NCBI GenBank assembly: GCA_013166775.1
Contig: JABLTJ010000019.1
Coordinates: forward strand, 1-59,417
DNA: 59,417 nt
Source of the DNA: Promethearchaeati archaeon
GTDB lineage: Archaea > Asgardarchaeota > Heimdallarchaeia > Heimdallarchaeales > Heimdallarchaeaceae
Direction of reading: 5' to 3'
Part shown: piece after piece, positions 8,834-10,398 of the stretch
Layout of the letters: the number at the start of each line of letters is the position of its first letter
How positions within the stretch are numbered: the first letter of the stretch is position 1
The notes under the pieces: model-generated
Seen by the model: only the letters and a program-made list of their open reading frames with translations
Databases searched by the model: none
Told to the model about the DNA's origin: nothing
Translations under genes and position numbers: made by a program

Positions 8834-9289
8834 ATGATGAAAAACAAATATTTCACACTTTTATTAGTTTCAATTACTTGTTTACTTCTCACTTTGGGAA
8901 GCATTTCTGCATTCCCACCTAGGACAGATTCAGCAGAAGTACATTCTGTGGAAGTTCTTGATGCCTATTACGTTGGAGCAGATATTTATACATCTATAGC
9001 AATTTGTGTACAAACGCAATCATCTACAGAAAATTACTACCTGCAGTTATCTCTGATAAATCCTTTAAGAGAAATCGAGAATCTGATTTTACATATAATT
9101 ACATCTTATGATAGTATTATCTTAGATATTGTTTTCTATGGTTATGCTACTGTTGCAGGAGATTATACAATCGAAGCTACAATTATCTCAAATGACAATG
9201 GATGGTTTGCTTTAACTGACATAATTATTTTTGATCCTCCTAGTGGCGGAAGTGAAGGAGATCCATATATTGGAATATCTATTAGATGA
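8834..9289 (+). CDS. Secreted beta-rich hypothetical protein with C-terminal FDPP motif (copy A)
   Basis: Signal peptide; alternating beta pattern; ends TDIIIFDPPSGGSEGDPYIGISIR; aligns with 47865..48323. Confidence 0.75.
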   Translation: MMKNKYFTLLLVSITCLLLTLGSISAFPPRTDSAEVHSVEVLDAYYVGADIYTSIAICVQTQSSTENYYLQLSLINPLREIENLILHIITSYDSIILDIVFYGYATVAGDYTIEATIISNDNGWFALTDIIIFDPPSGGSEGDPYIGISIR

Positions 9290-9312
9290 TCAAGGAATTT
9301 AGATGATTATTA

Positions 9313-10398
9313 ATGAACCCAAACTTCAAACTTCTTCAGTTTTTGCAAAAAAAACCAACAGCAAATTTTACGCAAATAGCTGAAGCTCTTGAAGTTACTG
9401 ATAAAACAGCTAAAGCGCATTATGATTTTCTTCTTAATGAAGAGTATATTGGAGGAGTAAGGGCAAAATATATTCCAGAAAGTATAGGTCTTGAAACAAA
9501 TACCTACCTTTTATCTCTACCAGATTTGAAGAGAGTAGAGCTTATAGAAGATTTAGCAGAGTTTCACAACTTTACAACTTTTCGAAACAGAATTATGGGG
9601 AATATCCAAGGATTATTAATACAGTTTGATGTTCCGGTCTATTCTGAGAAATTTCTAGAGGAACTATTTATCAAATTAGAAGAAATGAGTATTGTAGAAT
9701 CTTATGAAAAAATCCCTTCTCTTGGGATTAGACTAAGCACTAGTCCTGAATTTGAATATTTTAATGATAAAACAAGTGAATGGACTTGGGATTTCAAAGG
9801 ATGGAGCAAGAGATATAGAAATACTCCTTCAGAATTACCTTCAAAACTACCAAAAATCGTAGATGTAAAGAAAAAACTGAAATTGTTAGATATCAAACTT
9901 CTTACTGAAATAACTAAGGGTTCCAAATATCATCATAAGCAAATTGATTTTGCAAGAAGATTCAATGTTACACCTGTGCAAGTGACTAGACGGTTGAATT
10001 TTCTTAATATGTATGTTGTCAATTATAGGGTTTTATATGCTCGAGCAAAGATTCAAACAGTTGATTTAGTTTTATTCAGAGGAAAATGTTCTGAGGAGAG
10101 AAAAAATAAACTGTATAATCTAATTAAAAAATACCCAATTCCTTTTGATACAGGTTTTGAACTCCTTCGAGATGGTTTCTTATGGAGAATGAATATTCCT
10201 CCAGCATTTACGTCTTTGTTTAGTAATTTTCTGTGGGAAATTTGTTCCCGGGTAAACTTCTACAGATTTGATCATGCAAAGAGTAAATTATACTATTTTT
10301 ACGACCAAAATTTTGATTATGTATCTAGAGAGTGGAGAGCTACAAGAAAGGAAATGTATGAAGAACCATTAGACTGGATAAAAGGAGAAAAAATTTAG
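9313..10398 (+). CDS. Tandem wHTH / Lrp-AsnC-like transcriptional regulator (copy A)
   Basis: N-terminal HTH NFTQIAEALEVTDKTAKAH followed by PESIGL; second HTH LDIKLL...QIDFARRFNVTPVQVTRRL; homologous to 48371..49594. Confidence 0.75.
   Translation: MNPNFKLLQFLQKKPTANFTQIAEALEVTDKTAKAHYDFLLNEEYIGGVRAKYIPESIGLETNTYLLSLPDLKRVELIEDLAEFHNFTTFRNRIMGNIQGLLIQFDVPVYSEKFLEELFIKLEEMSIVESYEKIPSLGIRLSTSPEFEYFNDKTSEWTWDFKGWSKRYRNTPSELPSKLPKIVDVKKKLKLLDIKLLTEITKGSKYHHKQIDFARRFNVTPVQVTRRLNFLNMYVVNYRVLYARAKIQTVDLVLFRGKCSEERKNKLYNLIKKYPIPFDTGFELLRDGFLWRMNIPPAFTSLFSNFLWEICSRVNFYRFDHAKSKLYYFYDQNFDYVSREWRATRKEMYEEPLDWIKGEKI

Follow-up and report, generated by a model that had tools for sequence, protein, structure and literature searches.

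A widespread Asgard archaeal operon pairs small exported FDPP proteins with tandem Lrp-like regulators, often near secreted proteases

Introduction

In the RRNPP systems of peptide quorum sensing in Bacillota, such as NprR-NprX beside nprA and PlcR-PapR, genes for an exported precursor and a cytoplasmic regulator are adjacent and co-oriented and occur as many diverged pairs per genome. A palindromic promoter box is present, an adjoining secreted protease gene is under the same motif, and the precursor, a propeptide of 40 amino acids (aa) with a conserved and specific C-terminal part, is read by a receptor of the tetratricopeptide repeat (TPR) type. Here, we describe a gene pair of comparable layout in a 59,417-nucleotide stretch of DNA (the window: positions 1 to 59,417 of contig JABLTJ010000019.1, assembly GCA_013166775.1) from a Promethearchaeati archaeon of the Heimdallarchaeaceae. 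The window holds two copies, A (positions 8834 to 10398) and B (47865 to 49594), of a pair comprising a small exported protein with a C-terminal FDPP motif and a tandem Lrp-like regulator. An earlier note, made from the sequence alone, had proposed the pair as an undescribed signaling module.

Other described systems share parts of this architecture. Lrp/AsnC proteins (Pyrococcus FL11/LrpA, Sulfolobus Ss-LrpB, Escherichia coli Lrp and AsnC) are single chains of about 150 aa that join a winged helix-turn-helix (wHTH) to a RAM (regulation of amino acid metabolism) domain and assemble as dimers or octamers; autoregulated archaeal members are known with palindromic sites at the TATA box of their own operon. 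The siroheme decarboxylase NirDL/AhbA-AhbB (4ch7, 4czd) is the only solved protein with a fused tandem Lrp-like architecture. In eukaryotes, multicopy propeptides are cut by S8 or C14 proteases, as for yeast alpha-factor and Kex2, plant CLE, IDA, and PSK and subtilases, and plant Pep1 and a metacaspase. By full-text searching of the literature, we found no peptide-signal/cognate-receptor system in archaea and no description of the module reported here.

A conserved gene pair across Asgard archaea

Copies A and B are two paralogs of one Asgard-specific operon, which is widespread, undescribed, and equipped with paralog-specific palindromes, and which is frequently associated, independently of orientation, with secreted proteases of three catalytic classes. 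In copy A, smallA (8834 to 9289, + strand) is a 151-aa open reading frame (ORF) for a Sec-exported FDPP-family protein and is followed after 23 nucleotides (nt) by regA (9313 to 10398, +; 361 aa), a predicted cytoplasmic tandem Lrp/AsnC-like protein. In copy B, smallB (47865 to 48323, +; 152 aa) encodes an exported FDPP-family protein with a DxDxDG calcium-loop-like motif and a Pro/Gly-rich tail, and the tandem Lrp-like regB (48371 to 49594, +; 407 aa) begins 47 nt after it. Boundaries, sizes, and co-orientation are exactly as the earlier note gave them. The two regulators are homologous (BLASTP E value of 7e-11, with 26% identity across 103 N-terminal aa and a further aligned segment at the C terminus). 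Pairwise similarity of the small proteins is marginal (E value of 0.01 over 27 aa around FDPP); a 50-member family profile matches smallA at 8e-36 and smallB at 9e-34.

Given only two copies in the window and marginal identity between the small proteins, the adjacency could have been fortuitous, or merely a recent segmental duplication in this genome. That explanation is already refuted, and we give it practically no weight: among 143 fetched loci, in which ORFs were called mechanically, 96 of 97 FDPP genes have a co-oriented regulator immediately downstream, the single exception lying at a contig end, and the pairing spans at least three of the Asgard classes sampled. When the search was started from the small gene, all 27 FDPP loci drawn from four families outside the window's class likewise had the regulator directly downstream. 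The small gene lies from −8 to about 70 nt upstream of the regulator, co-oriented, in most loci, and such gaps argue for co-transcription of the pair. The earlier note had named two observations that would count against the module, FDPP genes mostly unlinked to the regulator elsewhere and a lack of conservation of FDPP itself; this census shows the reverse of the former, and the motif is present throughout the family alignment. Its view of the pair as a functional unit is borne out, in that the pair forms an operon, is kept in those classes, and diversifies as two genes together.

Of 83 genomes in the window's class, 79 match a profile of the regulator, at 1 to 12 copies each, and of 399 Asgard genomes, 105 match a profile of the small protein. 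Throughout the phylum, strong regulator matches follow the distribution of the FDPP family, and distant tandem-Lrp matches occur in family f20 (9 of 134 genomes). Names carried by orthologs put the organism of the window in Heimdallarchaeota. Among 1.84 billion proteins the FDPP family forms 354 clusters at 50% identity, and the 150 clusters listed are single-domain matches of 117 to 209 aa. The window's own genome (3.85 Mb in 115 contigs) carries four full-length regulator paralogs, two in the window and one each on contigs C22 and C5, and all four have a gene for an exported protein ahead of them in the same orientation. Two weaker matches in that genome were rejected as members: C79:42189-42761, which carries a signal of the pilin type, and C103:45721-46857, a regulator-like protein of another kind.

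Divergence is correlated between the two genes (Spearman coefficient of 0.48; 0 of 300 permutations; nearest-neighbor agreement in 80 of 100). This mirror-tree correlation, a test of congruence suggested in the earlier note, is significant, but co-duplication alone explains it.

At L039:2471-3688 and L039:4699-5910 of another genome (G002), two tandem regulator paralogs separated by 1 kb flank an FDPP gene, an example of local cassette duplication.

Tandem Lrp-like regulators

The regulators, 360 to 491 aa long, carry two complete units of a wHTH and a RAM-like (beta-alpha-beta-beta-alpha-beta) domain in one chain. An AlphaFold 2 (AF2) model of regA (predicted local distance difference test [pLDDT] score of 94.4; predicted template modeling [pTM] score of 0.90) contains two wHTH units, and its strand and helix order fits RAM. 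Its halves superpose on PH1519, AsnC, FL11, and Lrp with root mean square deviations (rmsd) of about 3 Å and template modeling (TM) scores, by target, of 0.6 to 0.76. Model and Foldseek matches thus agree with the tandem Lrp-like identity read earlier from the letters, and the regulator motifs listed at that time correspond to near-invariant or invariant columns (P55/E56/L60, H85, R93, G96, P108, P277/F278, P296/P297, and W341). The wHTH signature (S/T)xxxVxRR(L/I)xxL is kept in the second HTH as well. In searches with family models, regA matches Pfam PF13412 (HTH_24) at 25.1 bits (cut-off, 21.9), the Pfam HTH matches of regB are subthreshold only, no AsnC_trans_reg match is listed in Pfam for the regulators, no NCBIfam model (including AhbA/B) matches them, and no Pfam or NCBIfam model spans their full length. 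We conclude that they are a new tandem class of Lrp-type proteins. The clade of regB, which has an insertion of about 40 aa in its second wHTH region, also holds regulators that are paired with repeat peptides (the D-type, below).

The sole full-length structural match of regA in Foldseek, and its best, is NirDL (4ch7; E value of 7e-11; TM scores of 0.55 and 0.63), at an rmsd of about 10 Å for the whole chain. wHTH folds can, moreover, bind peptides, as in the recognition elements of ribosomally synthesized and posttranslationally modified peptide (RiPP) pathways. The tandem protein might accordingly be an enzyme, as NirDL/AhbAB is, or a dedicated chaperone, and act on the exported-protein precursor before secretion. 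We regard this as very improbable, given that the regulators have no sequence membership in the NirD/AhbA families, no catalytic domain, and no heme-pathway or d1 gene context, and that their second HTH keeps the wHTH signature. Only regB matches the NirdL-like HTH model PF22451, and its 14.8 bits fall below the cut-off of 27. Unlike NirDL, the module occurs in 1 to 12 copies per genome, has exported proteins and proteases as neighbors, and carries a cognate palindrome; the palindromes at the cognate promoters differ from paralog to paralog in step with the recognition helix. By analogy, the tandem protein probably works like a regulator and not like the NirDL enzyme.

Candidate operators

Divergent from copy A lies a gene for a secreted zincin-type metalloprotease with a signal peptide and an HEAGH motif (7614 to 8639, − strand). 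The 194-bp spacer between this gene and smallA holds the only two matches to TTTYTCGGR in the window, one facing each gene. On the protease side, an inverted repeat, TTCGGA-N18-TCCGA (8666 to 8694), encloses the TATA-like box of the protease promoter and is a candidate regA operator. On the smallA side, the half-site TTTTTCGGA (8784 to 8792, +) lies about 10 nt upstream of the smallA-regA TATA box (about 8802 to 8814). Copy A thus has a full inverted repeat at the protease promoter and a lone half-site at its own. Inverted repeats of the TTCGGA-N18-TCCGA type number only 2 in the 3.85-Mb genome, and a like repeat stands upstream of a C14 protease gene in two orthologous loci (L012 and L017). 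Eleven aligned orthologous smallA promoters share (A/T)TTT(C/T)TCGG(A/G), with a TATA box a few to about 30 nt downstream. The number of TTTYTCGGR matches in the window (2 against 1.5 expected) is not significant by itself, and the argument for the copy A motif rests on its position and on conservation in orthologs, not on enrichment. Genome-wide there are 80 sites against about 108 expected, so the motif is not a general promoter element.

In copy B, an inverted repeat of a different sequence, TTTCCA-N17-TGGAAA (47818 to 47846), encloses the smallB-regB TATA box (about 47826 to 47838) and is the candidate regB operator. It is kept in nine aligned promoters of orthologs and sisters, three of which differ at one or two positions of the left half-site. 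A longer form, GTTAC-N2-TTTTCCA...TGGAAAA-N2-GTAAC, is found in the D-type sister clade, and a further clade (f7) carries a palindrome of its own. Half-sites of A, B, and D are 17 to 18 nt apart and straddle the TATA box, or abut it in most D-type orthologs. The B and D regulators, which form sister clades, go with the same TTTCCA half-site and have first recognition helices that are almost the same; in A, half-site and helix are both different. Such covariation of half-site and recognition helix is classically seen among paralogous repressors or activators that regulate themselves, and we would expect the regulators to bind these sites; it also argues against the enzyme reading of the regulator.

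In the mechanism that we propose, the tandem Lrp protein would be a transcription factor acting on the inverted repeats, autoregulating its operon and, where one is present, regulating the protease gene. Autoregulation of the operon together with co-regulation of the protease is likely on this evidence. The resemblance to known Lrp/AsnC regulators extends to the wHTH and RAM fold of each half, the AsnC-type HTH signature, and palindromes positioned at the TATA box of their own operon or overlapping it. The differences are that here two units are fused in 361 to 491 aa, that the half-sites stand 17 to 18 nt apart, and that each paralog is tied to a private exported partner encoded upstream in the operon.

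At six loci (L009, L011, L012, L014, L016, and L017), a GC-containing hairpin with a T-run (for example, GTAGAGTTTTCTCTAC followed by T8) comes directly after the caspase-like gene. Because of this hairpin and T-run between them, the C14 protease gene and the FDPP operon are apparently transcribed separately, each with its own copy of the motif.

Secreted protease neighbors

Genes immediately upstream of the small gene encode Peptidase_S8 in 16 and Peptidase_C14 in 13 of 89 cases (29/89), and those of the encoded proteins that we inspected all have signal peptides. The genes immediately downstream of the regulator served as an internal control; 3 of 89 encode S8 and, among the families listed, none encodes C14. 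An S8 or C14 gene lies within about 2.5 kb of 43 of 97 modules, and the whole genome holds 11 S8 genes and 1 C14 gene. These raw counts overstate the association, as orthologous loci are not independent; it recurs nonetheless in at least eight separate clades and in both orientations, with a catalytic class that differs between clades. The earlier comparison with NprR/NprX and its secreted protease proves apt in that a secreted protease is the commonest upstream neighbor and the copy A protease gene carries the motif of the FDPP promoter.

The zincin of the window is unique in its own genome and among the fetched loci. It has weak matches, below cut-off, to Reprolysin_5 and Peptidase_M10 (E values of about 1e-3), no sequence match in the PDB, and no usable match in the ESM Atlas. 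Its slot is occupied by a C14 or subtilase gene in related loci, and the orthologous loci have Peptidase_C14. The A locus thus changed its protease class, from C14 to zincin, and retained the cis-motif.

In another Asgard class (the f31 loci, L097 to L108; for example, L099:326-1633, −), exported proteins of about 430 aa, with the mature N terminus WSNGG and a C-terminal Big_1 domain, are encoded upstream of the FDPP gene at several loci, either adjoining it or one gene away, and a subtilase gene often lies beyond. The N-terminal domain of these "AWSNGG" proteins has no recognizable family: the PDB gave no match, the Atlas nothing usable, and Big_1 was the only domain found.

Exported FDPP proteins

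FDPP proteins are a new exported protein family, typically of 150 to 180 aa with a Sec-type signal peptide. Their motifs are DAYYxDxDxDGxEDD, which is deleted in the A subfamily (smallA included), leaving it without the DxDxDG loop; (S/A)G(W/D)Y; and, at the C terminus, FDPP, a loop, a proline, and 5 to 9 residues. In an alignment of 50 proteins, Y46, D50, G109, F133, D134, P136, and P144 are invariant; with Y111 and P135 these make up the invariant or near-invariant columns that underlie the motifs first noticed between the two window copies. None of the 50 members has a Pfam model, NCBIfam has none for the family either, and an ESM Atlas search with the small proteins returned only "hypothetical protein" clusters and no named family. 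Features of archaeosortase/exosortase sorting signals (PGF-CTERM, PEP-CTERM) are lacking, as there is no hydrophobic helix and no basic cluster; among the partners, only the unrelated C-type protein has a transmembrane helix plus RRKR. The proteins end 13 to 20 residues past the FDPP motif.

In the AlphaFold model of smallA (pLDDT of 89.5), a signal helix precedes an eight-strand Ig/FN3-like beta-sandwich; FDPP (residues 133 to 136) closes strand 7, residues 137 to 144 form a loop (137 to 143) with the invariant proline (144), and strand 8 follows at 145 to 150. The fold searches that the earlier note had called for thus place smallA among Ig/FN3-like sandwiches and regA among tandem Lrp/AsnC-like proteins. 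The top Foldseek match of smallA is the Bacillus subtilis intracellular proteinase inhibitor Ipi (3isy; E value of 3.8e-4). This match, the position of protease genes as the commonest upstream neighbors, and the conservation and exposure of the loop would suit a secreted inhibitor, chaperone, or immunity protein of the neighboring protease, with the exposed FDPP loop as its reactive-site loop. We consider this unlikely. An exhaustive structure search shows only a generic Ig/FN3 sandwich, in which Ipi (Z score of 8.9) ties with about a hundred unrelated chains, and no inhibitor family in Pfam is matched. Members of this one family, further, neighbor proteases of three classes that differ in mechanism, no protease is found near half of the modules, and the obligate partner is the regulator, not a protease.

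The tail is more constrained than the earlier note supposed. Its description of C-terminal ends that diverge into different Gly/Pro/acidic tails does not hold, as all members keep FDPP, a loop (usually of 6 to 8 residues), the invariant proline, and a terminal segment of 5 to 9 residues with alternating hydrophobics. Nor is the tail a freely variable appendage: in each of three orthologue groups, conservation is higher in FDPP plus tail than in the body (82 versus 52%, 83 versus 56%, and 77 versus 58%). With FDPP and the invariant proline left out, the values within orthologue groups are 72 versus 60%, and between groups both are about 22%.

A sister clade with repeat peptides

In 13 species of the genus, a D-type regulator of 446 to 491 aa is paired with a gene of 62 to 142 aa whose product consists of a signal peptide and two to seven tandem units of 15 to 19 aa with the core [DE][ETV]P[IL][GQ]G. 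Units are near-identical within one protein and differ between species. The pair in the window's own genome lies on contig C5 and comprises a 121-aa partner with four 18-aa units containing PDEPIGG (L005:2455-2820, −) and the fourth regulator paralog, of 472 aa (L005:661-2079, −); at another locus (L124), the partner has seven units containing VEDEPIG. In a midpoint-rooted FastTree phylogeny of 139 regulators, whose branch supports were not inspected, the D clade is nested among long FDPP-paired regulators that include window copy B. The FDPP partners of these long regulators end in ...GGDPDYPIGGG... or ...GGSGDEPIGGGVSP (...DEPIGGGVSP), one reduced partner of 102 aa (L083) keeps the tail only, and several D-type precursors retain a strand-8-like relic at their C terminus. 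The string DEPIG occurs in 2 of 6,759 ORFs of the window's own genome. From these sequences, the beta-sandwich could be dispensed with, and the unit formed by the post-FDPP loop was kept and multiplied.

Between the two D-type genes lies a spacer of 230 to 400 nt (L005:2080-2454, −, and L124 to L135) with invariant blocks such as ATCGCCAGAAA, CCCCACCCC, CAAGGGGTCAAACC, and AGAGGTC and some compensatory pairs. The spacer has no Rfam match, does not occur in the window, and could be a structured RNA.

Proposed circuit and alternatives

Our best explanation as a whole is an operator-binding regulator that receives feedback from a fragment of its exported partner, and we hold it tentatively, at somewhat less than an even chance. 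The functional element of the partner would be the conserved acidic Gly/Pro loop after FDPP; the main argument is that the sister clade lost the sandwich and multiplied the loop unit two- to sevenfold behind a signal peptide. Extracellular proteolysis would release a fragment that contains the loop, the fragment or its product would be imported into the cell and bind within the cleft that separates the RAM domains, thereby closing a feedback circuit that reports cell density or local secreted-protease activity. This return of a proteolytic fragment with the acidic Gly/Pro loop to the regulator is the less certain step, about which we are slightly more doubtful than confident. The earlier pro-signal reading thus stands in part: the repeat-peptide sister clade, which keeps the tail loop only, lends it real, if indirect, support, but neither D|P cleavage nor a free tail is supported, since the last residues are predicted to form a beta-strand.

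By analogy, the module appears to work most like NprR-NprX-nprA or PlcR-PapR. The gene order differs, with the precursor gene first; the usual precursor, in the A and B partners, is a folded beta-sandwich domain of 120 aa whose C-terminal loop is conserved, not a 40-aa propeptide, and the D-type partner is propeptide-like; the hosts are archaeal; and the receptor has an Lrp-like fold with no TPR. Because the receptor fold differs, the module is not a member of RRNPP. Drawing on general knowledge, we also see a likeness to eukaryotic multicopy propeptides, both in the D-type combination of a signal peptide with tandem short Pro/Gly-rich units and in the subtilase and caspase-fold neighbors of the FDPP modules. 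D-type precursors, however, have no dibasic or other recognizable sites and no adjacent protease, and their receptor would be cytoplasmic; we claim no homology.

Several observations weigh against feedback by a peptide. Known Lrp/AsnC proteins use their RAM domains to bind amino acids rather than peptides. In the AF2 model of smallA, the last 6 residues form an integral eighth beta-strand (pLDDT of about 90), with which the alternating hydrophobic pattern of the tail agrees, and because the terminal residues are predicted to be a strand, the sandwich form is not expected to yield a free C-terminal peptide unless it is processed. The residue preceding the second conserved proline is variable, so a second conserved D|P site is absent. 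No S8 or C14 gene adjoins the D-type loci, and only about a third to a half of all modules have a recognizable protease nearby. The correlated divergence of the two genes cannot be counted as evidence of physical interaction, because co-duplication would give it. Finally, the regulator family does not need the FDPP loop, because some members have other partners. The C-type regulator on contig C22 pairs with an unrelated membrane-anchored exported protein of 294 aa (L002:538-1422, +), rich in N-x-S/T sequons, with a Pro/Thr stalk and a C-terminal transmembrane helix followed by RRKR; it is kept in 15 loci, matches no Pfam or NCBIfam family, and, at an hhalign probability of 5%, is not homologous to the FDPP family. 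Two further regulator loci pair with an ABC-2 membrane protein. The C-type pairing fits better with a plain regulator and its exported cargo.

These observations bring forward a simpler alternative, in which a feast/famine-type regulator senses a small metabolite, most plausibly amino acids from extracellular proteolysis, and controls its own operon and the neighboring protease. No peptide would then be read back; the FDPP protein would be an extracellular accessory, either in proteolysis or at the cell surface (a binding module, anchor, stabilizer, or decoy), whose loop serves the structure or interactions outside the cell. The Lrp fold, whose known relatives bind amino acids, is in keeping with this, as are an operon structure and inverted repeats that suit any autoregulator, the C-type and ABC-2 partners as cases of pairing with unrelated exported or membrane proteins, a tail modeled within the fold, and a protease neighborhood that fits nutritional control. 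What it leaves unexplained is why a sister clade would consist of a signal peptide and multiplied loop units, identical within a protein and different between species, and why almost every paralog, up to 12 per genome, has a private exported partner. We regard metabolite sensing as a serious possibility that is nevertheless well short of even probability.

Should the feedback by a loop fragment be real, it would amount to an archaeal form of peptide-based cell-cell sensing or of "secreted-enzyme efficiency" sensing, with a carrier cut by a subtilase, caspase-fold protease, or zincin and read by a tandem-Lrp receptor, and up to 12 private signal-receptor pairs would coexist per genome in Asgard archaea of the Heimdall and Thor types. 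This broader claim is possible and, in our judgment, rather doubtful. On that reading, the module may be the first known peptide-signal circuit of archaea. Even conservatively read, it comprises a new exported family, a new tandem Lrp class with predicted operators, and a regulon for extracellular proteolysis, which is thought to be central to the ecology of Asgard archaea in sediments. It is widespread among the closest archaeal relatives of eukaryotes, whose genomes hold several diverged copies each, and it ties together Lrp-type regulators, secreted proteases, and small exported proteins, which are usually studied apart. The predicted operators, loop peptides, and neighboring proteases make the signaling hypothesis testable in vitro without a cultured host.

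Other features of the window

A stand-alone CheY-like receiver (49606 to 49998, +; Response_reg E value of 5.6e-19) begins 11 nt after regB, and a receiver gene is the downstream neighbor at three loci of the fetched set, which suggests a third operon gene specific to the B subfamily; no kinase is nearby. Convergent with regA lies a gene for a Cys-rich DUF3795 protein (10553 to 10891, −; E value of 3e-7) that has no conserved link to the module. Ahead of smallB, positions 47252 to 47864 form an unusually long noncoding stretch of about 610 nt, of which only the last 50 nt are accounted for, by the inverted repeat and TATA box; the "ghost" of a gene tail flagged in the earlier note sits inside it. 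DNA of the window is also found in marine-sediment metagenomes.

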